This document shows positions 17,032 through 36,065 of a stretch of DNA of 64,000 nt, piece after piece; positions within the stretch are counted from its first letter, which is position 1; each line of letters starts with the position of its first letter. The stretch is from a virus. The DNA lies in the IMG/VR virus record IMGVR_UViG_3300043449_001609, positions 4,864 through 68,863 of that record. One strand, 5' to 3'. Below the pieces are notes generated by a model. It worked only from the letters and a program-made list of their open reading frames with translations, had not been told where the DNA came from and did no database searches. The position numbers were made by a program, and so were the translations under genes.

Positions 17032-20000
17032 ATGCCGTACATGTTCCCGCTCCCGAACGGGCAATACGTCAATGTCACCGATGACACGCCGCCAGATGTA
17101 GTGGAGGCGCGACTGCGCAAGGAAGCGCCGCAGCTGTTCGCAGGCTTGGAGGTCGAGCAGCCCGCACCGGACTACGGTCTGTTGGAAGCCTTCGGGAAGG
17201 GCGTGAAGCGTGGCACGCGCCAGATGGCCTCTGCGTTCGGAGATGTGATCCCGGCGATGGCTGCCAACGCGCTCGGCGCCGACGAGTACGCCAAGCAGCA
17301 GATGGACGAAGCGGCAGCGTCTCGCGAAGCCATCCAGAAGGAAGTGCCGGCGCAAGTCCCGTCGTACCGCGACGTCGATGGGGTGCGGAGTGGGGCCATC
17401 TACGCGCTGGAAGCCGCTGGCGAAGCCGTGCCGTCCATGCTGGGCGCGTTGCTCCCCGGCGGTATCGCAGGCAGTATCGCCAAGCGTGGTGTGTTGGCAG
17501 CCGCCGAGAAAGGTGCGCTGTCGTTGGGAGCCAAGGAGCTTGCGACGCTCGCTGCCAAGAAGCAGATGACGGGCCAACTGGTCGGGGCCTATCTGGGCTC
17601 CTACGCGCAGAACGCACCCGAGATTTTCCAGAACATCTACGACCGCACGGGTGACATGCGCCCGGGTGTGGCGATGCTTGCGAGTACGGTGTCCGCTGCG
17701 CTCGATACGGTGGTGCCGGCGAAGGTGTTGCATGGCATGAACGCTCCGGTGCGCGCGGAGGTAGTCAAGCAGCTGCTGCAGAAGTCTGGTACGCACCCGG
17801 TGCTCGCCGGGCTGGCCAAGGGCCTGCTGGCAGGGGCAGCCGAGGAAGGCATCACAGAAGCCGCGCAGGAAGGCGTCAGCATCGCCGCGGAGCGCTTCGT
17901 TGAGGGCAACGACAGCCTGTGGACGAGCGACGAGTGGCACCGTGTCATTGACTCCGGCCTGAAGGGCGCAGCGGGCGGCGCAGGCTTCGGCGCGCTGGGT
18001 GGCGGTGCGGAAGCGTACCGGGTCAAGACAGAAGCTGAGCGTGTGGACCAGCCGCCTCCGCCGGCGCCGTTCACCGGCAAGCAGTTGGGATGGATGGGGG
18101 AAGACGACGCAGGTGCCGCCGACTTCGGCCCTGTGTTCACGGGTGGGCCGACAGACGGTGAGCCCCCAGCAGGCGGCATGCGAGAACACGAGCTGCCTGA
18201 CGCCGAGAACTTGCGCACGTTCGACATGTCGCAGGAAGCTGAACGCGCCGGCGCACCGCTGCATCAGTTCGGTGATGTGTTCCCTCCCCCGGAAACGAAG
18301 GAGGCGCCCGCAACACCCAGCGCCACTCGATTGGGTTGGATTGGTGAGGCGGATGAAGGCGCCCCTGCAGCAGACTTCGGCTCTGTCGTGGACATGGCGA
18401 ACCAGCCAGAGTTCTACAACACGGTAAACAAGTTCCCGGCAGTGGTGCCGCCGACAACGGACTTCGTGGGCACGGACACGGGAGACGTGTCGGCTTCCGC
18501 TGACGAGGCAAGTGCTGCTGCGCTGGAGCGCCAGTACCGCCCACGCCCGCTCGATATTCCTACCGTCTCCGCTCCGCGCCCGATTACGCTGGAGGATGTG
18601 GCGGCAACGGGCGTGGCGTATCCGGGGCGAGACAGGTGGTTTGCAGAAAACGTCGTGGGCAAGACGCAGGACGAGCTGCGCCAACTTGTGTTCAACAAGC
18701 CGGAGCTGCTGCCCACACAGGGACAAGAACTATCCGAAAAACAGCGCGCGAAAAACGTCAAGCTGAACCCGCGCGCACAGGTCATATCGGCGTTGTTGGG
18801 CAAGCCCCTCGTTGCGGAAGACGCGCCGGCGCAGGTAGGCAAAGCGATTGCCGAGGCGGTGCCGAACAGGCCCGGCTGGCTGCAGTCCTACGCAGACGAT
18901 CTGACCACGCGTGTCACGCCTCTGTTGCCCAATGGCAGCGCCCTGAAAGCAGCTCTGCAGGTCGAGCGCACGGCGATCCGCCGCAGCAAGGCGTCCGATG
19001 ACGCGAAGCAAGCCAAGCTGGCCATGGTCGACGCGATCCAGCAGAAGGGCAACGCATACCGTCAGCAGATGCGCAAGCAGCCCAAGCAGACGCCGCTGAA
19101 AAGCCAAGGCGACTCCACGACCACCGGGCACACGGCGGACGAGCTTAACTCGCGGTTGGACAGCATCTTCGGTGCGGGCTTCATGGACAAGCTGTTCGGC
19201 ACCGGGCGGTTCCATGTCGGCTCGGCGGAGCAGGTTGGTGCGGCGACGCAGGAAGACACCGGCAACACGCGCGGTATGTACGACCGTCGCACCGGCATCA
19301 CGCACCTCATCGCAGACAACATCCCGAAGGCGCTGACCGACAACCAGCTCCGTGGTCTCATGCTGCACGAGATAGCTGTGCACGCCCTGCGCGTGGGACG
19401 CGACAGCGACGGCTGGCAGTTTCTGATGAGTGAGTTGCAGCGCCTGCACAAGCTCGGCAACAAGGATGTGGTCGAGGCGCACGAGCGCGCGGCAGCGGCC
19501 GGCACGGAAGACGCAGACCTGTGGGAAGAAGTCGCGGCGTACCTCGTGCAGAACAAGCCCAAGGCGTCCATCACACGGCGCATCCTCACGTGGTTCAAGG
19601 ATCAGGTCAACAAGGTGTTGAGCGCGTTCGGCCGAGACAGGCTCTCGCTGACGCCAGACGACATCACTGCCATGGCCCAGAGTGCGTTCGCCCGCGCGCC
19701 GCGTGAGTTGAGCAAGGCAGTTGTGCCGGGTGAGGGAGTCATCCCCTCCGAGCGTGCGCCGATATGGTACTCGCAGCTGAAGCGCGTCATGGAGCAACAG
19801 GGCGAGACGGAGCGCTCTGGCAATGAGTGGATTCAGTGGCTGAACGGCAACCTGTCCAAGCTCGGCGTCAAGAAGGTAGAGGTCGAGGCATCCGGCATCA
19901 CGGACTTCTTGGCGCTGCTGGGCAAGAAGAAAACATCGGCGCAGGAGCTGGCTGCGTTCGTGGAGCGTAATGGCCCGCGCGTGGAGTCACGGGTGCTTTC

Positions 20001-23000
20001 GGCAACTCCCGCAGATGGCCCAGCCCCATGGTCGGACTACAAATCGTTGCATGGCGGCCATTTGTATGGGGTGCTTGCTGTGCACTACCCACACACCGCG
20101 GTTACGGAGCTTCCTGATGGGTGGATAGTGGAGCCGGCAGGTCACGACGCCGATAGTGGGACGGTTTTTTTCCATGTTCGTGATGAGAATGGCAGGTATG
20201 TGCCCGACACACTGGCCACCAGTCGGGAACTAGCTGTACAGCAGGCGACAGAAAAAAGCAGTCTCCTATACCAATCTCCGCACTACAACGGGCGCGTGTT
20301 CTCGCGCAAACATGCGATACCAAATCTCATTGCCACGGCACGCGTGTCTGACATAGAAGCGGCCTCTGGTGAGACTGTGTTGGCAGCCCATGAGCTGCAG
20401 AGCGACTGGGGTGCTGACCTGATCGAGCAGGCAAAGCCCGAGACAACTTTGGAAGTCCTCCAGCGTAGACTTGATGAGGCCGCTGCCGCAAGAGACGCGG
20501 CATGGGAGGACTTTCATACACTCATAGCACCGTTTGTGCGAGACATTTCGACTGAGCTGGCGCTGGCGCTGGAGAAAGTACAACATACAGACCCTAACAG
20601 GTACGCAAAAGCTAAATTCGAAAGTAGGTTTTCGGGGACCGCGGAAGACTACGCCGAGAAAATGCTCATGCCCGGCGATCCGACAACTACAATGCGGCTC
20701 GTTCGACAAGCGCTCACGGGTTTCCGCACAACGCTGGGGGAGTTCAGGCACGCCATAAATGATGAGCGCTACAGACGAGTTAGAAATGCGTTGGATAACT
20801 TGGAAGAATCCACCGCCTACGACGATCTACTCCGAGCGCAGGATCGTTACTTTGACGCCACCAATGCGCTTGATCGGTATGAGCTGGACGGCCCCGAGCA
20901 AAGAAACGTGGCTCCACCAGCACCACACGTAAACGATACTCGCACATGGACGGCGCTCATCCTCAAGAACATGTTGCGGCACGCAGTGGACAACGGCTAC
21001 AACGGCATTGGCTGGGCGTCTGGCATGGATGTACACATCATGTTCCCCACCGCGGAAGATGGTTCCAGCACGTTGCCGGGCATGAAGAAGTACTATGACG
21101 AAATAGCACCGTCCGTTGCCCGTGACGTGATGAAGAAGCTCGGCGGTGGGGAAGTGACCACCATAGAAACGAAAGCTGGACAGCGCATCCACTACATCCC
21201 GTTGACGGACAAGCTGCGCGACACCGTCTCCCGAGGCATGCCGCTGTTCAGCAAGGCGCCCGCTGCGACGGCGCGAGCTAAGCCACTCCGCTCCATGACG
21301 TTCGATGATGACGTCGCTGGGGCCACGGCGCCGCAGGCAGCTGCCAGCACAATGCAGAAGTTCGGCAAGACGCTGCAGCAAGCATCGGACACAGTGCTTG
21401 GCCCGGAGCGCACGAACGCGCTTGACGGCCTGCTGCGTGGCACGGCGTCCGACGTCGCCAAGAACGCCACACTGGGTGCGCTGCCTCTGCATGCACTGGC
21501 TGACTGGATCAAGACGCGCGCCGGACGTGTGGTAACTGAGCAGACGCGCGCACTGGCTGACGCTGCGGCACGATTCCTTGATCTTGAGCGCTTGCGTAAC
21601 GGTGCGTACAAGGAGGCTGATGCCGACGTCGGTGCGATCTACAAGGCGACGGAAACGTGGCGGCGCGCGAACCCGAACAAGATTTCGGCATTCAACGAAG
21701 TTGTGTTCCGTGGTTCGGATGCCAAGATAGATTTCCGTTTCGGTGAGCCGCACTACGCCGAGCGGGTGGCTGCAGCCAAGAGCGAAGACGCGCGCGCCGC
21801 GGCCGTGGAGAAGCTGAACGCATACCGGGCGCTGAAGCCGCTGTACGACAGTCTCGGCAAGGACGGCCAAGCCACGTACGCCAAGATGCGTGCGACGTAC
21901 GACCGCCTGTACTACGACGTGGTCGAGCAGATCAGGCACAAGGTGCAGTCAATCAGCGGTGACGGCGAACTCGCTACGTCCGTGCACAACGTGTTCCATA
22001 GAAAGTTGATCGAGAGCGGTGGCCTTGAAGGTTACGCACCGTTCCTGCGTGAAGGCGACTACATCCTGAAGTACGACATCCGTGAGCCCGGCAAAGAAGG
22101 TACGGTGCCTGTGGTGCGGTTCTTCAAGAGCAAGCTGGAGCGCAGTCGCTTCATTGAGGGCATCGAGAAAGTTGATCCGGGGCTGGTGCAGGGGTCGATC
22201 CAGATGCCCGCCAAGGTGTCGCGAGAGACGTTCCGCGGTGCGCCGCCGAATTCGTTCATGGGGCAGCTCATGACGGTGCTGAGCGACAACGGTGTGCAGG
22301 GTGAGACGCTGGACGAAATCATGCGGCTGGCTGTGTCCCTGTCCCCGGAAGGTTCGCTCGCGCGGATGCTCCAGCACCGTAAGGGCACGCGCGGCTACGT
22401 CGAGGATGCGTTCTGGGCGTTCGAAAAGAATGCGCTCTCCTTGCGCAAGAAAGCGTTGAACCTGCGCTTCGCTGCCGACTTCTCCGACACACTGCGCAAG
22501 GTGAAGGACGCCGAGAAGCTGGCGGGTCCGGATGAAGTGTTGGTACGCCACGCACAAGAGCTGGAGAAGCGACTGCAGTTTGCGATGAACCCGACGCTGC
22601 CCACGTGGTCGCACCTCGCGCGCACCGCGACATACGCATGGACGCTGGGGCTCAACGTATCCTCCGCCATGATCGACATGGCAGCGATCCCCATGGTGTT
22701 CTACCCGTATCTGCTTGCCAACTACGGCAGCTCGGCTACCGCGGCGCTGAGCGACGCCACCAAGGTGTTCTTCGGCAGTGGGCGCACGCACCGGGTGGAG
22801 TCGTACCTGACTGCTGGCTTGGAAGGTGACGCTCTGAAGGAGGCGAAGAAAGCAGCCGGGCTCACGGGGCGCGACATCTCGGAGCTCAAGGGATACTACT
22901 CGATCACCAACTACGACTTCTCCAAGATCACGGACCCGCGCATCAAGCGGCTGGAGACGCTGGCGAAAATCGCCAACGACCATGGGCAGGTGATCCGGTT

Positions 23001-24228
23001 CTCCATGTACGACGACAAGGACGCGTTGCAGGAGGGCAGCACGCTCGCCAAGGTGAACGCGTGGCAGGGGCTGATGATGCAGCTGAGCGAGCGCACGCGC
23101 CGCGAGATTGGCATGACCGCGCACTATAACCTCGCACTGGACAAGATCGAGCGCGCCACGGGGCGCCCGGCGACCGCCGCCGAGCAGCAGCAGGCAGCGC
23201 GGAACGCTGTGGACTTCATCGAGAACACCAGCGGTGGCCTGTCCAGCATCGCCTCTCCACGATGGTCGCAGTCGTCTCTTGGCAGCGTGGCGTTCCTGTA
23301 CAAGAAGTACGGCCTCACCATGTACTACCACCAGTTCAAGATGCTGCGGGAGCTGCTGGCGTCCGAGTCCGATCCGGCGACGCGCGCGGCAGCGAAGCGG
23401 CAGTTCTTCACCACCATGGTCACGTCGGCCCTCTTTGCTGGTGTGCGTGGGATGCCCATGGTCGGCATCGTGGCGGCGCTCTGGAACGCGTTCAAGGACG
23501 AGGAAGACGACGACTTCAACACCATGCTGTCGAAGAACATCGGCTGGGGCGCTACGGGTCCGATCAACGCGCTGCTCAACACTGAGGTGTCGGCTCGGGT
23601 GAGCTTGACCAACCTGCTCGTGCGCGACCTGCCCGGCAACGAGAACCGGAGCACGGCGGACATCTTCGCACTGGTGCTGGGCGGGCCTGCGTGGGGCACT
23701 GCAGATCGCGTGATGCGGGGCGTGGGGCTCATCAACCAAGGCAACATGGAGCGTGGGCTGGAGACGCTGCTGCCGGCCTCTGTGGCGAACGTCATGAAGT
23801 CGGTGCGGTACTACGCCGAGGGCACCACCAACCTGAAGGGCGATCCGATTACCAAGGACGTGTCGTTCTTCAACGCAGTGGGACAGGCAATCGGCTTCGC
23901 GCCGGCGGACTACATCGCCGCGCAGGAGCGCGCCACGATCCTCAAGGCAGGCGACGACGCCATGCGCGCTGCGCGCGGCAAGCTGATGCAGCGCCTGTGG
24001 ATTGCCAGCCGTGCCAGCGATGCCGAGGAAGTGCGTTCGATCATGCAGGACGTGCAGGAGTTCAACAAGCGGTATCCGTACTCGGCCATCACCGGGGACA
24101 CGATCATGCGCTCGCGCTCCCAGCACATGCGCGCCCTGAAGGACATGATCTACAGCAGGATTCCGGATGCGTCGCGGCGGGCGTTCTGGCTGTCTCAGCT
24201 GCGGGAGCAGGGTGCCGACGACTTCTAG
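17032..24228 (+). CDS. Large polyvalent ejection protein (2398 aa) with zincin-like and PLxRFG-like regions
   Basis: AAGGAG RBS; LMLHEIAVH...WEEVAAY metallopeptidase-like motif; YAPFLREGDY resembles PLxRFG motif; last gene of virion operon. Confidence 0.7.
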   Translation: MPYMFPLPNGQYVNVTDDTPPDVVEARLRKEAPQLFAGLEVEQPAPDYGLLEAFGKGVKRGTRQMASAFGDVIPAMAANALGADEYAKQQMDEAAASREAIQKEVPAQVPSYRDVDGVRSGAIYALEAAGEAVPSMLGALLPGGIAGSIAKRGVLAAAEKGALSLGAKELATLAAKKQMTGQLVGAYLGSYAQNAPEIFQNIYDRTGDMRPGVAMLASTVSAALDTVVPAKVLHGMNAPVRAEVVKQLLQKSGTHPVLAGLAKGLLAGAAEEGITEAAQEGVSIAAERFVEGNDSLWTSDEWHRVIDSGLKGAAGGAGFGALGGGAEAYRVKTEAERVDQPPPPAPFTGKQLGWMGEDDAGAADFGPVFTGGPTDGEPPAGGMREHELPDAENLRTFDMSQEAERAGAPLHQFGDVFPPPETKEAPATPSATRLGWIGEADEGAPAADFGSVVDMANQPEFYNTVNKFPAVVPPTTDFVGTDTGDVSASADEASAAALERQYRPRPLDIPTVSAPRPITLEDVAATGVAYPGRDRWFAENVVGKTQDELRQLVFNKPELLPTQGQELSEKQRAKNVKLNPRAQVISALLGKPLVAEDAPAQVGKAIAEAVPNRPGWLQSYADDLTTRVTPLLPNGSALKAALQVERTAIRRSKASDDAKQAKLAMVDAIQQKGNAYRQQMRKQPKQTPLKSQGDSTTTGHTADELNSRLDSIFGAGFMDKLFGTGRFHVGSAEQVGAATQEDTGNTRGMYDRRTGITHLIADNIPKALTDNQLRGLMLHEIAVHALRVGRDSDGWQFLMSELQRLHKLGNKDVVEAHERAAAAGTEDADLWEEVAAYLVQNKPKASITRRILTWFKDQVNKVLSAFGRDRLSLTPDDITAMAQSAFARAPRELSKAVVPGEGVIPSERAPIWYSQLKRVMEQQGETERSGNEWIQWLNGNLSKLGVKKVEVEASGITDFLALLGKKKTSAQELAAFVERNGPRVESRVLSATPADGPAPWSDYKSLHGGHLYGVLAVHYPHTAVTELPDGWIVEPAGHDADSGTVFFHVRDENGRYVPDTLATSRELAVQQATEKSSLLYQSPHYNGRVFSRKHAIPNLIATARVSDIEAASGETVLAAHELQSDWGADLIEQAKPETTLEVLQRRLDEAAAARDAAWEDFHTLIAPFVRDISTELALALEKVQHTDPNRYAKAKFESRFSGTAEDYAEKMLMPGDPTTTMRLVRQALTGFRTTLGEFRHAINDERYRRVRNALDNLEESTAYDDLLRAQDRYFDATNALDRYELDGPEQRNVAPPAPHVNDTRTWTALILKNMLRHAVDNGYNGIGWASGMDVHIMFPTAEDGSSTLPGMKKYYDEIAPSVARDVMKKLGGGEVTTIETKAGQRIHYIPLTDKLRDTVSRGMPLFSKAPAATARAKPLRSMTFDDDVAGATAPQAAASTMQKFGKTLQQASDTVLGPERTNALDGLLRGTASDVAKNATLGALPLHALADWIKTRAGRVVTEQTRALADAAARFLDLERLRNGAYKEADADVGAIYKATETWRRANPNKISAFNEVVFRGSDAKIDFRFGEPHYAERVAAAKSEDARAAAVEKLNAYRALKPLYDSLGKDGQATYAKMRATYDRLYYDVVEQIRHKVQSISGDGELATSVHNVFHRKLIESGGLEGYAPFLREGDYILKYDIREPGKEGTVPVVRFFKSKLERSRFIEGIEKVDPGLVQGSIQMPAKVSRETFRGAPPNSFMGQLMTVLSDNGVQGETLDEIMRLAVSLSPEGSLARMLQHRKGTRGYVEDAFWAFEKNALSLRKKALNLRFAADFSDTLRKVKDAEKLAGPDEVLVRHAQELEKRLQFAMNPTLPTWSHLARTATYAWTLGLNVSSAMIDMAAIPMVFYPYLLANYGSSATAALSDATKVFFGSGRTHRVESYLTAGLEGDALKEAKKAAGLTGRDISELKGYYSITNYDFSKITDPRIKRLETLAKIANDHGQVIRFSMYDDKDALQEGSTLAKVNAWQGLMMQLSERTRREIGMTAHYNLALDKIERATGRPATAAEQQQAARNAVDFIENTSGGLSSIASPRWSQSSLGSVAFLYKKYGLTMYYHQFKMLRELLASESDPATRAAAKRQFFTTMVTSALFAGVRGMPMVGIVAALWNAFKDEEDDDFNTMLSKNIGWGATGPINALLNTEVSARVSLTNLLVRDLPGNENRSTADIFALVLGGPAWGTADRVMRGVGLINQGNMERGLETLLPASVANVMKSVRYYAEGTTNLKGDPITKDVSFFNAVGQAIGFAPADYIAAQERATILKAGDDAMRAARGKLMQRLWIASRASDAEEVRSIMQDVQEFNKRYPYSAITGDTIMRSRSQHMRALKDMIYSRIPDASRRAFWLSQLREQGADDF

Positions 24229-24257
24229 AAAAAAGAACCCCCGCACGGGGCGGGGGC
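24229..24257 (-). terminator. Intrinsic terminator at convergence of the two genome arms
   Basis: GCCCCCGC-CCCGT-GCGGGGGT-TCTTTTTT on - strand. Confidence 0.8.
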
Positions 24258-24297
24258 AACAACTTGAGAGGACTTGAACGACGCCGACCAAAGCGTC
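24229..24297 (-). ncRNA. Candidate small RNA (~69 nt): 5' hairpin, unpaired anti-RBS seed, terminator
   Basis: GACGCU-UUGGUC-GGCGUC hairpin at predicted +1, then GUUCAAGUCCUCUCAAGUUGUU, then GC hairpin and U-tract; own promoter. Confidence 0.6.
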
Positions 24298-24303
24298 ACG
24301 TGC

Positions 24304-24332
24304 ATTATACCGCCCGGCTCAGCTGTCTGCAA
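24304..24332 (-). promoter_or_regulatory. Sigma70-type promoter overlapping the primase stop codon
   Basis: TTGCAG-N17-TATAAT. Confidence 0.65.
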
Positions 24333-27153
24333 CCTCCCCGGCGGCAGCGTCCAGCGGCTTCTGCATCTCCGGTGTAAACCACCCTTCCCCGCTAACCTTG
24401 AGTGCCAGCGTGGGCGGCATGTCGATCTTCGTGCCCTTGCCCAGCCTGCACCGAACAAGCGTGCCATTGGCCGGCGCGCGCTGCATCTCCTTGACCAGCC
24501 ATCCGTAGTTGATCTGCCGGGACACGCACCAGTTCTTGAGTGGCGTGGGCAGGATGTACCACATGTTGGTGTCCGTCTCGTGCCGGCCCCGGATGTCTCC
24601 GCGCGGCACTGCGTCCACTATGGACGCGTCATGGCGTCGCCTGTCGTCGGTACTGCGCAGGCGCAGGAAGTTGCTGTACGTGGCGTTCAGGTACTCCATC
24701 AGCAGGTCGGGTGCCGATAGATCATCGTCGTTGATCCGCTTGCGCTCCTGTATCAGCGCTCGGATTATCCACGCCTGCAGCGCTTCCAGATCGTAGCTGA
24801 CCAGTCCGAGGTGCTTGGCGATCTTGAGTGCCGTCAGTACGCAGGCTGCTTGCACGGACCAGTGGCGGTTCTCGGCGGTGAGTCCGGCGGCCTCGTCAAT
24901 GTCTTGCTGAATGGCAGCCACAGCAGCCTGCACATCCTCCACGTGCTCCATGACATACGCCAGAAAGATCGGCCCCGCGTGCCCGTAGTTGGCCTTGAGC
25001 GCGCGGCTGAACACGTCCGTTTCGTGCTTGTTCTTGAACAGCATGCGGTGCGCTGTCACTTCGATGACACGCTGCGCTTCCGCCTTCGGCACAGCCTTGT
25101 ACTCGGATATGCGCTCAAGCAAGCTGGTGTTGCCGGTGGTGACTGCGATCAGCGCCCATGGCTTACCCCGCGTGCGCTCGACGTTCATGCTGCCTGCCAT
25201 GCGGTTGCGCTGCATGCCGCTGGGTATCTGGTAGATAATGTCGCTCGCTTCGTTGGGCTTCACGTTGGTCATCTCGTCCAGATACAGCGGCAGGTCTTTG
25301 TACACTTCCGCACGCAGCATCTTGGAGTTGTTCGTGTCCTGCTCGATCAGCACATACTGATCCGGGTCTGCCCACACCGATGCACCAGCCCACATCGCTG
25401 ACGTCTTGCCAAGGCCGGAGTCTTTGCTGTGGAAGTGGAACAGGCTGCCGCGGATGGGCGTGAGTCGTGTGAGCACCGAACCGAACCCGGTGCCGACGAT
25501 GTATTGGTGGGCTTCGAAGTCCGGCCGGTTGTAGAAGTTGACGGTGTCCTTCCAATCTTGCAGCGTTCCTTTCGGAACGAAGATGGGGAACAACTTCACC
25601 GTTGTCGGCGCCGGCGGGTTCGCGACTGTTCCCTTGACGGTGTACACCTTGTCTCCCAGAGCGAACCCCGTGAAGGTGTCATCCGTCCAGCCGAACTGTC
25701 TGTGTGTAAATGCAGCTGATGTTGTGTACTCCATTTTAGTCGTCCACTTGATGAGGTAGTCCATGATGAGGTCGACCTTCGGCTCCAGCACACCGTGCTT
25801 GGCCATGATCTTCCTCAGTTCTTCTTTCGTCGCCACGGTGGTTGTGGGCACCGTGATTTCCCGAACACCATCGCGCGGCATGTGCACGCGCACGATGATC
25901 GCATCTCCCACATCCTCGTCGTTGATCCGGTTCACAACGTACATGTCGTTGCGATATACGCAGACGTCCATGGGGTCGCCGGCCTTGTCCTGCGTACGAA
26001 GGTACACGCCGCCGTTCTTGCCGCGGAAGTAGGGTGCAGGGTACTGCGGCACTTCCAACGTCACGGATTCCGCGTCTTCCCACTGCGCGCGCTTGGTGGG
26101 TTCCTTCACGGTCACCACGTTATCTTCCGGCTCCGCTTCGATCACTTCTTTCCCAAGCTGTATGGGAGATGTGATCCTGCCCTTGTGCGGGCAGCCTTCG
26201 CAGCGCTCGGCGTTCAACGTCGCAAACGAACTGCAGTGGTACGGACCTTTCGTGAGCTGTGCCTTTTCGGCCGTCTCGGCTGGGTTGTAGTTGGGGTGCT
26301 TCTCGGAAATCTTGTGTATCGCCTTGTCGGCGTCAACACAGTGCGCTGCGATAGACAGCGCAGCTCGCCACAGGGGCTCGTCAACTTCGTCTTGGTGCGT
26401 CGCCGCAAACGTCAGCTGGCTGCACCCGGTGCCCTTGGCACACTTCTGCATGATGGTGCGAAAGCGGCTCGTCATGTTGCCCAGCAACGCGTCCATGAGT
26501 GGATCGCTCGGCAGACTTATCGCTGCAGGCACAGGAGTCTTGATGACAGGCACCAGCTCGCGCACGCGCGCAACAGATAACAGCTGGCCGCCGGGCACTA
26601 CCACACGCACCGGACGCGGCGTGCCGTCCTTCATGTTCTCACTGCCGGGCACACGCAGTACGCGCGCACTGTCAGCTGTTACAACAGGGTCGATAGCAAA
26701 CCCATTCGACAGGCAGAGCTCACGGAAGCCGTCAGCAAGCGGCTGCCACTCTCGTCTCGGCAGTGCGTCTTCCAACGGCCAGTACGCGTGGATGCCGCGC
26801 CCGGAGTTCACCACGATGGGTTTGGGCAGCTTGTGTTGCTTGCAGAATGCGCGCAGCGCCGTGACCGCGTGGGGCTGGTCGACAAATGGCTTGCCTACCC
26901 CACAGTCCAGATCGACGAACAGGGACCGCAGCGCCTCGACGTTATCGGCCTTGCGCCCCTTCGGATCGACAAACGTGGCGAGCGCAAAATAGACATCACA
27001 CCCTTCGCCGGCGCGCTGCATGGCAGCATCGACCAGCTGTGGGATGGTCTTATGAAACGTCTGCACAGGTTGCTGGCTAGACGCGCGCGTAGCGAACAGG
27101 CAGTAGTAGCCCGTGTCGCTCAAAACTATACGCAGAAACTCGTCTGTGGTCAT
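24319..27153 (-). CDS. Primase-helicase (RepB/AEP-like primase plus DUF927-type helicase)
   Basis: FVDLD, NSGRGIHAYW, RVLRVPG; Walker A SGLGKTS; YLDE. Confidence 0.85.
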   Translation of the reverse strand: MTTDEFLRIVLSDTGYYCLFATRASSQQPVQTFHKTIPQLVDAAMQRAGEGCDVYFALATFVDPKGRKADNVEALRSLFVDLDCGVGKPFVDQPHAVTALRAFCKQHKLPKPIVVNSGRGIHAYWPLEDALPRREWQPLADGFRELCLSNGFAIDPVVTADSARVLRVPGSENMKDGTPRPVRVVVPGGQLLSVARVRELVPVIKTPVPAAISLPSDPLMDALLGNMTSRFRTIMQKCAKGTGCSQLTFAATHQDEVDEPLWRAALSIAAHCVDADKAIHKISEKHPNYNPAETAEKAQLTKGPYHCSSFATLNAERCEGCPHKGRITSPIQLGKEVIEAEPEDNVVTVKEPTKRAQWEDAESVTLEVPQYPAPYFRGKNGGVYLRTQDKAGDPMDVCVYRNDMYVVNRINDEDVGDAIIVRVHMPRDGVREITVPTTTVATKEELRKIMAKHGVLEPKVDLIMDYLIKWTTKMEYTTSAAFTHRQFGWTDDTFTGFALGDKVYTVKGTVANPPAPTTVKLFPIFVPKGTLQDWKDTVNFYNRPDFEAHQYIVGTGFGSVLTRLTPIRGSLFHFHSKDSGLGKTSAMWAGASVWADPDQYVLIEQDTNNSKMLRAEVYKDLPLYLDEMTNVKPNEASDIIYQIPSGMQRNRMAGSMNVERTRGKPWALIAVTTGNTSLLERISEYKAVPKAEAQRVIEVTAHRMLFKNKHETDVFSRALKANYGHAGPIFLAYVMEHVEDVQAAVAAIQQDIDEAAGLTAENRHWSVQAACVLTALKIAKHLGLVSYDLEALQAWIIRALIQERKRINDDDLSAPDLLMEYLNATYSNFLRLRSTDDRRRHDASIVDAVPRGDIRGRHETDTNMWYILPTPLKNWCVSRQINYGWLVKEMQRAPANGTLVRCRLGKGTKIDMPPTLALKVSGEGWFTPEMQKPLDAAAGEVADS

Positions 27154-27177
27154 GCGCCATACCAGAGCAAAGCGGGG

Positions 27178-27204
27178 AAAAAGAAGGGCCTTGCGGCCCC
27201 TCTC
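27178..27204 (-). terminator. Intrinsic terminator after SSB-like gene
   Basis: GGGGCC-GCAA-GGCCCT-TCTTTTT on - strand. Confidence 0.75.
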
Positions 27205-27223
27205 ACGTCAACACACGATGGTG

Positions 27224-28249
27224 TTACTCGTCATCCCACTCGTCCAGCATGCTGCCCAAGTCCTTGACAGGAGCCGCAGGCTCCGGCGCCTTCGTTTGCT
27301 CCCGGCGCTTCGGCTCGGCAACGGGCTCCGTGGCAGGCTCGGCGCTACCAAAGCCTTTCGCACCCTTCGGACGGCCACGCGTCTTGACAGCTGCCGGTGC
27401 CGGCGTAGGTGCGGGCGCTTCTTCGTCGTCGCCTTCCTCGTCGTCAGCTGCCGGCTCCGGCGCAGGGGCGGGCTTGGACTTGGCGCCGCCGAACAGATCG
27501 GCCTTTTCCTTCTTCTCGGCTTTCTTCTCCGTGCGATCTGCTTGCGCTACCGTAAAGGTGATGGCGTTCAGCGCTTCCGGGCTGTCTTTGTGCTCGATAA
27601 CCGCACGCAGCTCGTCTTCGTCCAGCGGGCGCACCGGGCTGAAGGTCAGCATCGGGGTCGTGGAGTCGACGTCCATCGTCATGCGCGTGACCACGCTGAT
27701 GATGTGCGTGTTGTGTGCCTTCAGCAGACGGGCGTACCCCTGCATGGACATCTTGTTCTTGTCGCCACCAAATAGCGACGTCGCCGGCAGCTGCATCTGG
27801 TACACCGGGCCATCTTCAATAGCGCCGTCCAGCACGACAGCCACACGTTGCGAGAAGCGGCACGCACGGCTTTCGCCTTGGCCAGACCCCTTGATGTTCT
27901 GCGGGCAGTCCATGCAGCGGCTGGCTTGGCGCTGATCCTCCGGCACATCATCGGCAGGCACTTGCGTGTCGCGCGACCAGCAGGTCGGTGCGGACGACTC
28001 GCCCTCCACGTACGGGCCGTCGTAGAAGTGTCGGGACATGGTTGCCGCCGCAACAATCACCACGTCCAGCTCGCTCTCTTTCGATACGCGCACTTCTTCG
28101 CCGTTGATGACTTCGCGGAATCGACCACCGCGGATCGAGATGCGGTTACCTCCACCGCCGCCCGCCAGTGTGCCGGTGATGTTATCTTCGATACCCTCAA
28201 GCAGTTTGAGAGCTGGGTTCTTCTTGAACAATGCAAGATCGGTACTCAT
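27224..28249 (-). CDS. Single-stranded DNA-binding-like protein
   Basis: RISIRGGRF, PTCWS, CMDCPQN...SRAC; acidic aromatic tail LDEWDDE; replication context. Confidence 0.6.
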   Translation of the reverse strand: MSTDLALFKKNPALKLLEGIEDNITGTLAGGGGGNRISIRGGRFREVINGEEVRVSKESELDVVIVAAATMSRHFYDGPYVEGESSAPTCWSRDTQVPADDVPEDQRQASRCMDCPQNIKGSGQGESRACRFSQRVAVVLDGAIEDGPVYQMQLPATSLFGGDKNKMSMQGYARLLKAHNTHIISVVTRMTMDVDSTTPMLTFSPVRPLDEDELRAVIEHKDSPEALNAITFTVAQADRTEKKAEKKEKADLFGGAKSKPAPAPEPAADDEEGDDEEAPAPTPAPAAVKTRGRPKGAKGFGSAEPATEPVAEPKRREQTKAPEPAAPVKDLGSMLDEWDDE

Positions 28250-28545
28250 TCAGAGTCTCCTTCAGTTGGGAAAATATCTTCCAGTCGAAACGGCCGGTGC
28301 TCCGGTGCGGGCACAGGCTCCTCCAGTTGCAGCGGTAGCTGCTCCTCATCCACGGCCGCTACGCGAGGCTGCGGCCTGAACGCTATCAGCAGGGCTTCCA
28401 TATCGAAGCGATACGTCTGCCCTATCTTGCAGTAGCAGTGCGCAGGGACAAGCCCACGGCGCAGCCAATACCGCACGGTTCCTACAGTCACATCCAGCTG
28501 CGTCGCCACCGCGTCAATGCGAACCCAGCGCGGGTCATCGCTCAT
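28246..28545 (-). CDS. Excisionase/MerR-like helix-turn-helix protein
   Basis: VATQLDVTVGTVRYWLRRGLVP...KIGQTYRF. Confidence 0.7.
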   Translation of the reverse strand: MSDDPRWVRIDAVATQLDVTVGTVRYWLRRGLVPAHCYCKIGQTYRFDMEALLIAFRPQPRVAAVDEEQLPLQLEEPVPAPEHRPFRLEDIFPTEGDSE

Positions 28546-28548
28546 GGG

Positions 28549-28962
28549 TCAGCCCCCTGATGCGCGCGGCTTGGTGATGACGATTTCGTACTTGACCGTG
28601 CTGTTCAGCCCGGGCGGCAGCAGGTCGGGGTGATCGGTCAGGAACTCTTTCATGTTGCTCTGGTTGATGCGACGGTCGAGCAGCCCCAGCGCGTCGTGCT
28701 CCTTGATGAAGCCGTACATCGAATCCCAGTCGTTCGTCTCGTACCGCGTGCTGGTCTTGCGGTAGAAGCTGCCGGCATCCGTGCGCCCGCTCTCGACGTT
28801 GTGCTCTTTGCAGTAGTCCATGAGCGCTTGCTTGATGATGGTCTGCTTTTCTTCCAGCTCGGCGTCTTGGTCTTCGAACGCCTTCTTGAGTTCGGAGCGC
28901 TTGTTGCGCAGCTTGATGAACACTTTGACCAGACGTTCGATGTCCAGTGTGCTGTCGGTCAT
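28549..28962 (-). CDS. Hypothetical replication-region protein
   Basis: GGAGT RBS before ATG 28962; coiled coil then RTDAGSFY...NDWD. Confidence 0.65.
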   Translation of the reverse strand: MTDSTLDIERLVKVFIKLRNKRSELKKAFEDQDAELEEKQTIIKQALMDYCKEHNVESGRTDAGSFYRKTSTRYETNDWDSMYGFIKEHDALGLLDRRINQSNMKEFLTDHPDLLPPGLNSTVKYEIVITKPRASGG

Positions 28963-28992
28963 GGGGTGGACTCCATGGTGGGTTGAGCTGTC

Positions 28993-29021
28993 ATTAAAAC
29001 ATAACAATTCGTTTCAATCAA
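28993..29021 (-). promoter_or_regulatory. Sigma70-type promoter (extended -10)
   Basis: TTGATT-N17-TTTAAT with TGn. Confidence 0.55.
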
Positions 29022-30552
29022 GTAGTTTTCGATACATTTCGACAATCTGGGTGTGAACGTCGATGTTGTTGTCCAGCATGCTGTACACGTGTCGCTCAAC
29101 AGGGGCGCCTTCCAACCGCACGACAGTGCAAGGAAACTTCTGTCCGGCACGGTGCGGTCGGGCGTTGGCTTGCGCGTAAATCTCCAGCGAGCTGGTCGGC
29201 CCCCACCAGACGATGGTGTCGGCTGCGGTGAGCGTCACGCCGTGTGCGGCTGACTGAGGCTGGATAATCAGGATACGCGGGTCTGGGTCGTCTTGAAAAG
29301 CCCTGAACAGCCGCGTGCGCTCGCCGGCGGACACCGCCCCGTTGATGACCCCCACGGTGTAGCCGTCCTCCTTGAGCCGCGACTGCAGCGCCTGTATGGC
29401 GTGCGTGTACATGACGAACACCAGCACCTTGCGATCTGTCTCGCTGATGACCTCCTCCAGCACGCGGTAGCGGTTGCTGATGTCGTAGTCGAGGATTGCC
29501 CCGGACTCGGTGTAACTCGCCCCTGACGCGATCTGGAGCAGCCTGTTGAGCTTCACGGCGGCGTTGGCAGCGGTGATCTGCTCCCCGGCCGCGCTGATGA
29601 GCATGTGCTTGCGGAACTCGTCGTAGTAGTGCTTCTGCTGCTGCGTCATCGGCACGTGGCGCGTGACGTACGTTATCTCCGGCAGGTCAAGGCACTCCTT
29701 CTTGGTGAAGCGGATCGCCGGCTGCAGCGCAGCGTGCACGATGTCCTTGGCGTTGGGGCGCGGGATGTACTTGAAGTTGGTGACCTTCTGCATCACCTGT
29801 TCGCGGAAGCCGTTGAAGAACCGCGGCACGCCGTTGGGGTTCACGAGCTTGGCCAGTCCGTAGGCATCCACAGGCGACTGCGCCGCCGGCGTGCCGGTCA
29901 TCATCCACAGCCACGTATTGGGCTTGACGAGCTTGGCCATCGACTTCCACCGGCGCGTGCTGGTGGTCTTCACGGCGTTGGCTTCATCTGCGATGACAAG
30001 GTCGAACCCGGCAAGCATCAGGTACTCCATCATGATGGGCACCCCGTCGTAGTTGATGATGACGAACTCAGCGTTGCCTTGGATCACCTTGCGGCGCTGC
30101 TCGGCGGAGCCGTGTGCGATGTCCACGCGCCGGTGCATGAGGGTCTTGAACAGGTCGCTCCGCCACGCGTTGTCCATGACGGACACAGGACACACGATCA
30201 GCACGCGCTTGATGAGCCCCTTCTCCATGAGGTAGTCCGCAGCCCACGCCGCCGACATTGTTTTCCCGGTTCCCTGTTCCCCGAAGTTGAACGCGCGCGA
30301 GTGCATGGTGAGGAACGCAGCGACCGTCTTCTGGTGCTCAAAGGGCTTGTACATGCCGGGCCAGTTGTAGTCCCGCATGATGGGAGATGGCGCTGACTTG
30401 ACACCGAGGTTCTGCAGCACGCGCATCTCGTCTACGCCCCAGTGCACCAGCACGCGACCGTCCGGCAGCAGTCGACTCTTGGGTATGGCTGCCAGAATGT
30501 GTGCAGGCCGCTTCACGCGCACGGCAACGGCGCGGTTCTCGATTACTTCCAT
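29014..30552 (-). CDS. SNF2-family helicase
   Basis: EQGTGKT, IADEA, MTGTP, HGVTLT, QANARPHRAGQ. Confidence 0.9.
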   Translation of the reverse strand: MEVIENRAVAVRVKRPAHILAAIPKSRLLPDGRVLVHWGVDEMRVLQNLGVKSAPSPIMRDYNWPGMYKPFEHQKTVAAFLTMHSRAFNFGEQGTGKTMSAAWAADYLMEKGLIKRVLIVCPVSVMDNAWRSDLFKTLMHRRVDIAHGSAEQRRKVIQGNAEFVIINYDGVPIMMEYLMLAGFDLVIADEANAVKTTSTRRWKSMAKLVKPNTWLWMMTGTPAAQSPVDAYGLAKLVNPNGVPRFFNGFREQVMQKVTNFKYIPRPNAKDIVHAALQPAIRFTKKECLDLPEITYVTRHVPMTQQQKHYYDEFRKHMLISAAGEQITAANAAVKLNRLLQIASGASYTESGAILDYDISNRYRVLEEVISETDRKVLVFVMYTHAIQALQSRLKEDGYTVGVINGAVSAGERTRLFRAFQDDPDPRILIIQPQSAAHGVTLTAADTIVWWGPTSSLEIYAQANARPHRAGQKFPCTVVRLEGAPVERHVYSMLDNNIDVHTQIVEMYRKLLD

Positions 30553-30557
30553 AAATT

Positions 30558-31067
30558 TTACATCCCCGATACGAGTTGGTCTAAGCGCAACGGTGCTGCG
30601 CACTCTGCATTAAGCTCCGGCTTCAGCACGTGAATATATATGGACTCTAGGCGGTTTAATTTTTCTGGCGGGCACGGGACGTAAGCAAAACGGTCAAATG
30701 TTTTATCTTTGTGCTGCGAGAGTCGGCTATAGACATTCACGGATTGTCCAACGTAGACAACTCGGTTGTCACGTATCAAGAAGTACACCCCAGACACACG
30801 AGACATACTGTAGCTGGCCGCTACAATGTGCTCCTCCGACAACAAAAGTTTATCGTTCAGTTCCGGGTGCTGGGCTTGCAGCTCCGCGCACAGCCTTGCC
30901 ATTCCGAGTCGTTGCTCCAGAGCCTGCACTTCTTCGGCCAGACGGAAGCGCTGGCTCATCGCGTATTCTCGTTCCGCGTGCAGCTTGTCCAGTCTCGCTC
31001 GCCGTGTAGCCACCCCTTTTGCAGCGCTGGCTCTGCGCTGGTCCGGTGTCCTGTCGTGCAGTCCCAT
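30558..31067 (-). CDS. GIY-YIG nuclease-domain protein
   Basis: SGVYFL...VYVGQS...RLSQH...LESIYI...PELN; more AT-rich than neighbours. Confidence 0.75.
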   Translation of the reverse strand: MGLHDRTPDQRRASAAKGVATRRARLDKLHAEREYAMSQRFRLAEEVQALEQRLGMARLCAELQAQHPELNDKLLLSEEHIVAASYSMSRVSGVYFLIRDNRVVYVGQSVNVYSRLSQHKDKTFDRFAYVPCPPEKLNRLESIYIHVLKPELNAECAAPLRLDQLVSGM

Positions 31068-31070
31068 AAC

Positions 31071-31331
31071 TTATTTTTTCTCGCCCGGCTTGTGGCCATT
31101 GCGGGAACGGTTGGTGCGCGGCGACTCAAGGTAGTACCCGTCGCCGTTGTCGCCGCCCTTGGCGAGCGCCTTCTTGTGGCTGACGTCTTTGCCCTTGCGG
31201 TTCACGCCCTTCTTGTCGAGCGCTCTGCGCGCACGCTGCCGCTCCATGCGGTCCTCGTGCTCACCACGCTTCTTCTGCAGCTCGTACTCGTGCTTGTACG
31301 GGCGATCCTTCTCGGGGTTCTTGTAGGCCAT
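31071..31331 (-). CDS. Small HNH-like protein
   Basis: GKDVSHKKALAKGGDN...NRSRN. Confidence 0.65.
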   Translation of the reverse strand: MAYKNPEKDRPYKHEYELQKKRGEHEDRMERQRARRALDKKGVNRKGKDVSHKKALAKGGDNGDGYYLESPRTNRSRNGHKPGEKK

Positions 31332-31999
31332 TACCTGTTACTCCCATTGTGTACACACGACTCAACGATGCAGTGCCGACGACAAAGACCTGACTCGCGT
31401 GGGTTCCAGATGTCGTTCTTGAACGCCAGCTCCAGTGCGCGGTGCTCGCGTAACCACTTGTCCCACAGCTGCGACTCTTGCGCGCGGTGGTATATCTCAC
31501 GGGGGAAGCTGTTGGCGACCACGAACAGCAACCCAGCACGCACGATGTCCACGTCGGGGAAGTGCTTGAAGATGGCCATGGCCATCAGCTCCAGCTGCCC
31601 CTTGTCTGCGTACTTTGCGCTGGCGCCCGTCTTGTAGTCGATGACCCGTGCCGTGCGGTCTTGCAGGATCACCAAGTCGGCCACGCCCCGCCACCACACA
31701 TTGTGCGCGTCGATAGCGCATGGTTCAAGGTCTTCCGTGAGCCCCATGGTGTACTCGCACAGTTTCTTGCCGGGCATCTCCTTGAGCTTGGTCAGTGCCT
31801 CCAGCGCGAAGTCGAACTTCGCCGGCAGCTCGTGCGTTCCCTGCACGAACAGCTCTGCGGCCTTGTGGAACTCCGTGCCGTACCGTGTGGCCTCCGTGTC
31901 TTCGATCTGGTAGTTCTTCAGCACCCGTATCTCGTGGTACTGCCGCGGGCACGTCTTGAAGTTCTTCAGGCTGCTGTACGACCATGTGCGTGCTTTCAT
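31331..31999 (-). CDS. PD-(D/E)XK exonuclease (RecB/Cas4-like)
   Basis: WSYSSLKNFKTCPRQY, GTEFH, GVADL, VIDYKTG, QLELMA, C-terminal Cys cluster. Confidence 0.85.
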   Translation of the reverse strand: MKARTWSYSSLKNFKTCPRQYHEIRVLKNYQIEDTEATRYGTEFHKAAELFVQGTHELPAKFDFALEALTKLKEMPGKKLCEYTMGLTEDLEPCAIDAHNVWWRGVADLVILQDRTARVIDYKTGASAKYADKGQLELMAMAIFKHFPDVDIVRAGLLFVVANSFPREIYHRAQESQLWDKWLREHRALELAFKNDIWNPRESGLCRRHCIVESCVHNGSNR

Positions 32000-32289
32000 T
32001 TCAAATCACTCCACGGTACATCTACACCACACAACAAGCACAGCGCGTTCTCGGGCATGAGACAGAACTCGTAGCTGCCGCACTTGCATTGAAACACCAT
32101 ACCTTCTGCCGGCAGCACCACGTGCGTGTACCGGCCCTTCATCGTGCCACAAGCCGGGCACTCCAGCTCACGCGTCCCTGCGGGGGCCACACAATGCCAC
32201 TTATGCCGACACTCGATGCACACAGCTTCCGATTGAATGTGCGGCATGCGCTTGAGGCGTTCGGCTTCCAAGTCGATGGGCTCGCTCAT
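31996..32289 (-). CDS. Zinc-ribbon hypothetical protein
   Basis: Four CxxC/CxC pairs; coupled to exonuclease gene. Confidence 0.55.
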   Translation of the reverse strand: MSEPIDLEAERLKRMPHIQSEAVCIECRHKWHCVAPAGTRELECPACGTMKGRYTHVVLPAEGMVFQCKCGSYEFCLMPENALCLLCGVDVPWSDLK

Positions 32290-32290
32290 T

Positions 32291-32554
32291 TCATTTCTCC
32301 ATATCACATGCCGTTTCCGCTATCGACGCAGTCAGCCCAGCAATATCAATAAAGCGAGCGATTGCATTTAGTGTTTTTTCCTGCTCGGCTAATTTTTCTT
32401 CGCACGCGCCCAATTTCGCTTTCGTACGCGCAACGTCTAGGTTCGCTCGCTGCAGTTGTATCATAAGACTAGAAATCTCCGCGGCGTGATCTGAGCACAC
32501 ACCAGCCAATTTCAGGTACTCATCTTCTAAGTTAGTCCACTGTATGTCGTTCAT
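32291..32554 (-). CDS. Coiled-coil hypothetical protein
   Basis: MNDIQWTNLE start overlapping the pol stop; AT-richer. Confidence 0.5.
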   Translation of the reverse strand: MNDIQWTNLEDEYLKLAGVCSDHAAEISSLMIQLQRANLDVARTKAKLGACEEKLAEQEKTLNAIARFIDIAGLTASIAETACDMEK

Positions 32555-35421: not shown

Positions 35422-35424
35422 AGG

Positions 35425-35622
35425 TCACGCCCACGTATTGTTGTGGATGACGTTGAAGATACACATGGTGGACACGTCGTACCGCTTCGCAAGCATGGCT
35501 TGTGTGTAGCGCCCGGTTTCGTACAGCACGCGGATGCGTGCGGCCTTGGCGTATGTGAGTTTGGCGCGGCCGTTACGTTCGCCGGCGTTGTTGGAAACTT
35601 TCTTCGCAGTTGACTTCTTCAC
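35425..35622 (-). CDS. Small helix-turn-helix protein
   Basis: GERNGRAKLT...TQAMLAKRYDVS...VIHNNTW, like HTH tails of HNH proteins. Confidence 0.65.
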   Translation of the reverse strand: MKKSTAKKVSNNAGERNGRAKLTYAKAARIRVLYETGRYTQAMLAKRYDVSTMCIFNVIHNNTWA

Positions 35623-36065
35623 TTGGACTCTCCTTTCACAATGTCATGTAGATCAAACTTGGTGTTCTCCCGTGCACGGAGTGCGGGGAGTATTGCTGCC
35701 TGCTCGTCCAGCAGCTCGTCAAAGTCCCCCATGTAGGGGGGCCGGTTGTCGTTGAACAGCTCGGTGCCGTCAACATCCAGTATCATCATCAGGCACGCGC
35801 AGGCAGCTGCCAGCGGGTGTACGCCGTCCGATGTCTTATCCTTCCCACACCACCACGCAAAGATGTGTCGCATGGCCGCGCCAAAGTACACGCTGGCGCT
35901 GATCTTCTCCTCCTCCCAGTTGTATGGTTGATATTTAAACCCACCGTCCGCAAACGCCATGGCGATCTTCGCCAGTGCACGGACAGGTATGAGGTGAAGC
36001 GGCACTTTGTTCATGCCGCCCACGCGCGTCTTTGGGTTGCTGTCAGGTGCCGGCATTGCTGTCAT
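35619..36065 (-). CDS. dATP/dGTP diphosphohydrolase-like protein (DUF5664)
   Basis: NPK...KVPLHLIP...GGFKYQPYNW...AAMRH...W. Confidence 0.7.
   Translation of the reverse strand: MTAMPAPDSNPKTRVGGMNKVPLHLIPVRALAKIAMAFADGGFKYQPYNWEEEKISASVYFGAAMRHIFAWWCGKDKTSDGVHPLAAACACLMMILDVDGTELFNDNRPPYMGDFDELLDEQAAILPALRARENTKFDLHDIVKGESK

Follow-up and report, generated by a model that had tools for sequence, protein, structure and literature searches.

A conserved candidate small RNA between the converging gene arms of an uncultured phage, predicted to pair with early ribosome-binding sites

The 64,000-nucleotide (nt) window analysed here comprises bases 4864-68863 of the 68,863-base-pair (bp) IMG/VR record IMGVR_UViG_3300043449_001609, which is rated complete and, judging by the sequencing runs that contain it, originates from an uncultured freshwater phage. 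Its two gene arms converge on a 90-nt gap, flanked by the primase gene on the minus strand and the gene of a 2398-amino-acid (aa) protein on the plus strand, and this gap harbours a candidate small RNA (sRNA) unit with a putative promoter and an intrinsic terminator. The reading favoured on balance, with slightly better than even confidence, is that the unit specifies a conserved trans-acting sRNA of ~70 nt that would occlude a class-specific ribosome-binding site (RBS). The evidence lies in the conservation of the unit among related phages, in its complementarity to early gene starts and in the way its unpaired motif varies together with those starts from phage to phage.

Anatomy and promoter of the unit

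The minus-strand genes run from 51565 down to 24319 and form an early/replication arm of ~27 kilobases (kb) containing many small genes, an ATPase, a DNA polymerase, a helicase and the primase/helicase. The plus-strand genes extend from ~51647 to the record end and then from the record start to 24228; this late arm includes the terminase, the portal, tail fibres and the 2398-aa protein. The features at the convergent point are the following, in window positions, as throughout.

24319-27153, minus strand: primase/helicase gene (944 aa, DUF927), the final gene of the minus arm and the anchor of the search for relatives
17032-24228, plus strand: convergent giant gene (2398 aa), the final gene of the plus arm; in relatives its place is taken by a 1700-2600-aa gene
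24327-24332, minus strand: -35-like hexamer TTGCAG, within the last primase codons, matching the consensus at 3/6 positions
24304-24309, minus strand: -10 hexamer TATAAT, the counterpart of the TAnnnT box of relatives
24280-24297, minus strand: 5' hairpin of the predicted RNA (6 bp, 6-nt loop), with the predicted start near 24297
24258-24279, minus strand: unpaired 22-nt seed GUUCAAGUCCUCUCAAGUUGUU, whose core AGUCCUCU is complementary to the early-type Shine-Dalgarno (SD) sequence AGAGGACU
24229-24257, minus strand: intrinsic terminator, an 8-bp GC hairpin (24257-24237) followed by a U-run (24236-24229)

A preliminary description of this DNA had placed TTGCAG-N17-TATAAT, 69 nt and a terminator at the end of the primase gene, and every one of these features was found where it had been located. 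The 17-nt spacer includes the primase stop codon TGA (24321-24319), and six nt separate TATAAT from the 69-nt predicted RNA (24297-24229, minus strand), which has the U-run at its end. The terminator, also listed by the program scan of the window, is common to the unit and the primase operon and ends one base short of the convergent gene's stop codon. With the giant gene ending at 24228, the unit overlaps no gene on the opposite strand. No SD-plus-start combination is present in the 69 nt, and a discrete short RNA without a coding frame is predicted from the intrinsic terminator. The fold described earlier, a 5' hairpin, an unpaired seed and the terminator hairpin, was reproduced with 22 unpaired nt and a 5' loop predicted to read UUUGGU(C). 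Its minimum free energy is -25.5 kcal/mol (z = -2.58), and 2/200 shuffles fold equally well. The window has no Rfam match at the gathering threshold.

TATAAT occurs in five copies on both strands of the 68,863-bp genome, two of which have TTG 17 nt upstream, and a looser promoter rule finds 9 sites against 5.0 +/- 2.2 in shuffles. Three others of these nine sites, of the form TTGnnn-17-TAnnnT, lie on the same strand in obvious promoter positions.

Before the first minus-strand gene, minus strand: TTGCAT/GATAAT, 17-nt spacer
50142-50115, minus strand: TTGACC/TATACT, 17-nt spacer
44121-44093, minus strand: TTGACT/TATAAT, 17-nt spacer

Because these three sites with 17-nt spacers sit where early promoters are expected, the phage appears to use host-type promoters on its minus strand, and the TTGCAG-N17-TATAAT candidate resembles them.

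Conservation in related phages

The primase has no close relative, its best match being 51% identical. A profile search of IMG/VR with this protein returned at least 591 contigs, and the best 80 of the 591 were fetched; 67 of the 80 loci were assessable (primase 42-50% identical), the other 13 being left out for contig ends or because the small open reading frame (ORF) described next was not found. In these relatives a small conserved ORF (71-102 aa) comes after the primase, and a gap of ~70-95 nt separates it from the stop of a convergent gene of ~1700-2600 aa. The gap holds a TAnnnT box straight after the stop codon, mostly as TGA-TAnnAT, the extended -10 form, then a hairpin, an unpaired C/U-rich motif, most commonly GUUCUCCU (usually GUUCUCC), and a GC hairpin with a T-run.

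The box lies directly after the upstream stop codon in 57/67 relatives, the terminator (hairpin and T-run) is present in 60/67 and the C/U-rich core in 64/67, with TTCTCC in 38/67; box, terminator and core occur together, at the same syntenic place, in 53/67. In an alignment of 27 units the T and A of the box are invariant and the last T is kept in at least 90%. The T, A and final T are the most conserved positions of the sigma-70 -10 element.

The predicted RNA is ~69 nt long here and 60-90 nt in relatives. When the 5' bodies (the part 5' of the terminator) were compared with dinucleotide shuffles, z was below -1 in 35/41 and below -2 in 24, with a single value above 0. The C/U-rich 4-mers are unpaired in 112/139 cases, against 55% of all bases. 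The first hairpins of the relatives occupy the same place with many different self-complementary stems, most of which begin 2-9 nt after the box. The structural claim is based on the fold z-scores and the list of stems, as MAFFT cannot register the 5' arms because their loop lengths vary. A chance promoter would not be expected to show such conservation, and these comparisons indicate that the unit has been conserved across a large lineage of uncultured phages.

The small ORF, marked by the motifs PDGVRIVV.W, SVFIPC.NT and GVR.WR, stands between primase and RNA unit in nearly all relatives, and its last codons provide the -35 and the spacer of the unit's putative promoter. Examples are given below, with L-numbers denoting individual relatives.

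L029, 12807-13070: small ORF
L045, 8480-8734: small ORF
L004, 12813-13028: small ORF

A Pfam search with the small ORF gave no convincing family. By adjacency it is a candidate partner of the RNA gene. In the genome of the present phage a tblastn search found nothing below E = 0.1 for this ORF, and the unit is kept nevertheless; L067 likewise has TGA-TACTAT, a C/U-rich stretch and the terminator directly after the primase, without the small ORF. In L045, L051, L076 and L025 the C-terminal W-R-T codons of the ORF read GGAGAAC ~40 nt upstream of the GUUCUCC of the RNA; the seed could thus be masked in a read-through messenger RNA (mRNA) and not in the short RNA. Among cultured phages, the best primase relative is that of Pseudomonas phage Rollin (28% identity), which has no gap at its convergent point. 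The portal relatives HTVC023P, HTVC027P, MinM2/Pag-Yong1 and CRP-901/902 are absent from the primase search results.

Complementarity to early ribosome-binding sites

Gene starts were called roughly, with an ad hoc rule that gives preference to starts preceded by SD-like sequence, and this yielded 37 start regions per arm. A perfect complement of at least 7 nt to the 22-nt seed is present at 9/37 starts of the minus arm and 1/37 of the plus arm, and one of at least 8 nt at four and none, respectively. Mean duplex energy is -13.8 kcal/mol for the minus arm and -10.3 kcal/mol for the plus arm (Mann-Whitney p = 1.1e-5). The seed was shuffled 200 times in each of three ways against the same target set: fully, with CCTC kept, or with CCTCT kept. 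Seed matches equally frequent at late-gene RBSs or in shuffled controls had been named beforehand as a refutation of the proposal, and they were not observed. Full shuffles gave 1.2 +/- 1.3 matches of 7 nt and 0/200 reached 9; with CCTC kept, 2.3 +/- 2.5 matches were obtained and 3% of shuffles reached 9, as did 1% with CCTCT kept. The 8-nt matches were reached by 1%, 2.5% and 8% of the full, CCTC-kept and CCTCT-kept shuffles, and the early-minus-late energy gap of -3.46 by 0/200 of any type.

The preliminary description had ascribed the matches to an early regulon. Their location on the minus arm was borne out, and their extent is narrower: the 7-nt matches fall in the promoter-proximal half of the arm (9/22) and are absent from the replication half (0/15; p = 0.004). 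All the target sites listed there, from 39923 to 50043 and including the 11/12 match at 47743-47754, exist. The predicted targets lie 15-26 kb from the unit, on the same strand, with matches of 7-9 nt.

39923-39929, minus strand: GAGGACU, within the SD region; gene start 39918
41164-41170, minus strand: AGAGGAC, behind a palindrome copy; gene start 41156
42671-42678, minus strand: AGAGGACU (AGAGGACT); gene start 42665
42848-42855, minus strand: AGAGGACU (AGAGGACT), behind a palindrome copy; gene start 42842
44014-44021, minus strand: AGAGGACU (AGAGGACT), behind a palindrome copy; gene start 44007; best duplex, -20.4 kcal/mol
44946-44954, minus strand: AGGACUUGA (9 nt), upstream of the gene start at 44930
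46034-46040, minus strand: AACAACU, beside GGAGGG and behind a palindrome copy; pairs with the 3' end of the seed
47743-47754, minus strand: ACAACUGGAGAG (11/12); gene start 47736; duplex -19.8 kcal/mol
48885-48891, minus strand: GAGGACU; gene start 48879
50037-50043, minus strand: AGAGGAC, behind a palindrome copy; gene start 50030, the first gene after the TTGACC-17-TATACT promoter

The RBS that these genes have in common forms the 3' portion of a recurring leader cassette, which comprises an 18-bp palindrome and an SD sequence. Ten copies of the palindrome, TGTATACC-NN-GGTATACA, lie within 39001-51671, nine exact and one with one mismatch.

39001, 41173, 42858, 44028, 46042, 46969, 49650, 50050, 50850 and 51654: palindrome copies

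Eight of the ten are preceded by a stop codon (or promoter) and directly followed by an SD sequence with its start codon; of the other two, one comes after a terminator and one is in the divergent control region between the arms. As early leaders are partly copies of one cassette, the seed matches are not independent events; the shuffle tests already allow for this because the same target set was used. The palindrome itself may serve as the operator of a dimeric regulator; alternatively, it may act at the RNA level, as a hairpin for processing or stability. Unrelated IMG/VR phage contigs, among them ones of 58% and 69-70% GC, also carry its 16-bp core more than once, and in L083 an SD sequence and ATG again lie downstream. 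The idea that the TATAAT of the unit is a relic half-site of the palindrome, GCGGTATA being common to both, was dropped, the left half being mismatched.

The two arms of the genome also differ in SD flavour: late genes mostly have (U/A)AAGGAG, and the early half of the minus arm has AGAGGAC(U) or AGGAGGA.

Co-variation of seed and SD flank

In relatives, genes on the same strand as the primase often start with GGAGAAC, 3-5 nt and ATG, and the RNA carries GUUCUCC. Where the flank at the starts differs, the motif in the RNA differs with it, as in the following cases.

L018 and L031: start flank GGAGAAU(G), RNA motif (C)AUUCUCC
L026: start flank AAGGAGAUU, RNA motif AAUCUCCUU
L071: start flank AUGGAGA, RNA motif UCUCCAU
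L075/L078: start flank GGAGAGA, RNA motif UCUCUCC
L023: start flank AGAGAGA, RNA motif UCUCUCU
L049: start flank GAGAAAC, RNA motif GUUUCUC
The present phage: start flank AGAGGACU, RNA motif AGUCCUCU

GGAGAAC is found at 34/200 starts in phages that carry GUUCUCC and at 7/293 in those that do not; GGAGAAU at 8/36 in carriers of AUUCUCC and 11/457 in the others; and GGAGAGA at 5/38 in carriers of UCUCUCC and 12/455 in the others. Co-variation of seed and RBS in related phages had been set beforehand as a test of the proposal, and it was found. In 43 dereplicated phages, out of 54 with five or more called starts, 26.9% of start regions match the RNA of their own phage at 7 nt, against 14.7% for the RNAs of other phages; the corresponding shares at 8 nt are 15.2% and 5.8%. 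A difference this large between own and other RNAs was not attained in any of 20,000 permutations, a figure inflated by kinship (see below), and 34/43 phages differ in the right direction. As a control, segments containing no fewer anti-SD cores than the RNA were drawn from each phage's own genome. Across 25 phages and 326 starts, these segments predict 26.2 matches at 7 nt and 9.3 at 8 nt; the RNAs themselves gave 83 and 43. In the whole records of five relatives, 35/128 same-strand starts match and 2/110 opposite-strand starts do (p = 6e-9). The unpaired motif, as read from these sequence comparisons, is co-evolving with the ribosome-binding sites of its own gene arm. Relatives also repeat the arm split of SD flavour, with GGAGAAC-type sites on the primase strand only.

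Proposed mechanism

As the conserved promoter consensus suggests, host sigma-70 RNA polymerase would start at the -10 box, at the far end of the early/replication arm, and transcription would end at the intrinsic terminator that also closes the arm. In the predicted fold of the resulting RNA, whose structure signal is conserved, a pyrimidine-rich stretch is left unpaired between the 5' hairpin and the terminator hairpin. Counts, shuffles and co-variation show this stretch to be the reverse complement of the SD sequence plus a lineage-specific flank, a flavour that about a quarter of the same-arm genes have and that late genes lack. Pairing would keep 30S subunits off and lower or shut off translation of a temporal class, possibly with mRNA decay, and would take effect as the RNA accumulates and genome copies rise. 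In the present phage the target flavour would be AGAGGACU, which occurs only in the early half of the arm, the half that is promoter-proximal and rich in palindromes. The most likely effect is that translation of the early gene class is damped or shut off, since sRNAs that cover an SD sequence generally repress.

A broader idea, which is plausible but held more tentatively and at a little under even confidence, is that the lineage gives its early and middle genes a private SD "dialect", a core plus a 3-4-nt flank that late genes lack, and that one sRNA reads it. Early-gene temporal shut-off in lytic phages is known mainly through proteins, such as RegA and RegB of T4, and through promoter switching. 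If the dialect exists, a single RNA could silence a whole temporal class while late-gene translation continues; it would be an RNA counterpart of RegA/RegB in which dialect and reader drift together over evolution. If the RNA works as proposed, it would account for the differing SD flavours of the two arms of one genome. Such a simple, sequence-programmable translational switch would be widespread in environmental phages, the anchoring primase being present in at least 591 IMG/VR contigs, and a ~70-nt RNA with an 8-nt leader tag would make a compact part for synthetic control.

Alternative explanations

Several observations weigh against the proposed sRNA. One or more of box, terminator and C/U-rich core are missing in 14/67 relatives. 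The -35 of the present phage is weak (3/6), and because of this the unit's promoter was not listed by the program promoter scan; none of the public runs containing the sequence is an RNA run. The match between RNA and starts is zero in L002, L045 and L059 and low in L004, L044 and L051, and the 16S-tail-like loop motifs CACCUCC and AUCCUCC have no specific targets (0/28 and 0/15). The rule used to call starts itself favours SD-like upstream sequence. Kinship among the phages inflates the permutation figures, which overstate the number of independent events because related phages share descent; there are about five distinct switches of seed and flank. Transcripts reading through from the giant gene, if any, could moreover sponge the RNA by full complementarity.

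The conserved element could instead be the 3' untranslated end of the primase-arm mRNA, full-length or processed, with TAnnnT kept for another reason such as tandem stops. This explanation is unlikely but retains a real share of the probability: the terminator is common to unit and arm, the box of relatives abuts the stop codon with TGA-TAG and TGA-TAA tandems being common, and there is again the weak -35. Against it, the conserved columns are exactly the T, A and final T of a -10 hexamer rather than just the two bases behind the stop codon; the box is retained here and in L067, where the small ORF is lost, and in the present phage it is a perfect TATAAT apart from the stop codon, with TTG 17 nt upstream. 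The position of the first hairpin, 2-9 nt after the box in most relatives, also fits a transcript starting there. The conserved box and its survival without the small ORF favour a primary transcript over a processed 3' end. Slightly less probable again is an RNA that pairs with early RBSs without repressing them, through protection from RNase or opening of the leader, or one whose main partner is read-through mRNA of the giant gene, acting in cis-antisense processing or as a sponge. The terminator hairpin has no T-run on the plus strand, so late transcripts may extend across the unit, which would make them complementary to the whole RNA; several targets here lie directly behind a stable palindromic hairpin. 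Pairing over an SD sequence, however, normally blocks initiation according to the available part of PMC4615179, and the cis-antisense version leaves co-variation with start regions 15-26 kb away unexplained.

From DNA alone, complementarity on one strand is indistinguishable from identity on the other, a point that also counts against the proposed sRNA: the early-strand complementarity can equally be read as late-strand identity. The functional strand could then be the late one, with a copy of an early-type RBS that either opens a very short late gene or acts as a decoy, binding 30S subunits or an RBS-binding repressor protein; in the present phage a 148-codon frame (24274-24720, plus strand) begins right after the SD-like motif. 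This is quite improbable. In 16/43 phages no start codon follows any SD-like core within 3-12 nt, frames of at least 30 codons are present in only 10/43 and of at least 60 codons in 2/43, and the 148-codon frame scores -0.12 per codon, against ~+0.2 to +0.4 for most called genes. The ORF/RBS version was rejected on these grounds, and the -10 box and the T-run are both oriented as expected for the early strand, which argues against the decoy as well. Least probable is an arm terminator alone, accompanied by a chance promoter-like match and a chance similarity to the SD sequence. In a single genome an 8-nt match to a repeated leader, and promoter-like sites at only about twice the shuffle expectation (9 versus 5.0 +/- 2.2), might be taken to suggest this, but the whole unit is conserved in 53/67 relatives, seed and SD flank co-vary and the matches are specific to one strand. 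Given these comparative data, chance is very unlikely.

Relation to known regulators

The c4 RNA of phages P1 and P7 is reportedly 77 nt long, and is said to control the icd-ant operon of temperate phages for immunity and to be processed from the same transcript. As described in the available part of PMC12197685, its exposed sequences pair around the RBS of phage mRNA and block translation. The predicted RNA resembles it as a small phage-encoded RNA pairing at the RBS of phage mRNA, but would have many target genes, up to 26 kb away. No such family is among the Rfam matches for the unit and its relatives, in a database that presumably includes a C4 model.

The alphaproteobacterial sRNA family known as cuckoo, alpha-r14 or CcsR (Rfam RF02344, ar14) has, in the accessible text of PMC4615179, two to four adjacent hairpins with variable stems, each with CCUCCUCCC in its loop; this unpaired, anti-SD-like C/U-rich motif is the only conserved sequence. 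The ar14 match in the relative L045 is sub-threshold (30.2 bits, E = 2.7e-4, against a gathering score of 58.8), and the unit of the present phage has no ar14 match in Rfam up to E = 10; on these scores it is not regarded as a member. The predicted RNAs of the phage lineage resemble this family in their hairpins of highly variable stem sequence and in an unpaired C/U-rich motif of anti-SD type. In contrast to ar14, the present unit has one 5' hairpin, lacks the CCUCCUCCC loop motif and carries AGUCCUCU in the linker; some relatives have first hairpins with CCUCC-like loops, with the main motif GUUCUCC in the linker. The RNA would also be phage-encoded and aimed at the phage's own genes.

The portions of PMC3014915 consulted describe T4 RegB as cutting GGAG in the SD sequences of early genes, with most middle and all late mRNAs escaping, and RegA as repressing many early and middle mRNAs at the RBS. 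The proposed job is, by analogy, the same, namely inactivation of a temporal mRNA class at its initiation regions; RegA and RegB are proteins, whereas the phage unit would owe its specificity to an RNA that pairs with the SD flank of one gene class. In type I 3'-untranslated-region (3'-UTR) sRNAs such as DapZ and MicL, the promoter reaches into the 3' end of the preceding coding sequence, the terminator is shared with the mRNA and the seed lies just upstream of the terminator. The phage unit has the same layout of promoter, terminator and seed, with the -35 in the last primase codons, the stop codon in the spacer and a single shared terminator. The known examples are bacterial, Hfq-dependent and directed at unrelated host targets, whereas the unit closes a 27-kb phage arm whose own genes it would act on.

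Rsa RNAs of Staphylococcus aureus have C-rich motifs that pair with SD sequences, and lambda OOP and P22 sar are cis-antisense phage RNAs, encoded opposite their target and fully complementary to it. The 6C sRNA of Actinobacteria is described, in the part of PMC6486639 available, as an sRNA with C-rich loops that binds SD sequences. Like 6C and Rsa, the predicted RNA has unpaired C-rich motifs that would pair with G-rich SD regions of several mRNAs; those systems set a generic motif against a generic SD sequence, and here the match extends into a co-varying, lineage-specific flank. Unlike the targets of OOP and sar, those proposed here are 15-26 kb off on the same strand, with 7-9-nt matches. 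No phage sRNA controlling its own gene class via a shared RBS was found in the literature searched, to which the supplement of PMC12197685 (38 further phage sRNAs) did not belong, and the term "early gene" was not found in the available part of that 2025 phage-sRNA review.

Further features of the genome

The annotation of the phage shows no lysogeny genes among what was annotated, and a scan of the region for tRNA and tmRNA found none. A blastn search of the region against GenBank phages gave no match, searches of IMG/VR by single-protein patterns gave no close relatives, and the exact 19-nt seed was not found in IMG/VR. Four DNA runs yielded contigs over 24200-44199, one of which (24273-24489) is identical to the window and another begins at 24305; these contigs are short and hold no usable information on variation of the RNA body or on co-variation of seed and leader.

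The 2398-aa protein has weak family matches only, to PHROGs of unknown function or "DarB-like antirestriction" over residues ~1600-2370, together with a sub-threshold match to the LPD39 domain. A gene of 1700-2600 aa occupies this convergent position in all relatives examined. A 564-codon frame (62308-64000) runs off the record end and a 577-aa frame begins at record base 4; the two are probably one gene cut by linearising a circularly permuted genome.

Positions 50100-50850 form an AT-rich, gene-free stretch of ~750 nt that is full of short A/T repeats and is bounded by a terminated 212-aa gene on one side and the TTGACC-17-TATACT promoter on the other, in a region (50001-52000) with a GC content of 0.51 against ~0.60 elsewhere. 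This stretch may be an origin or a regulatory region.

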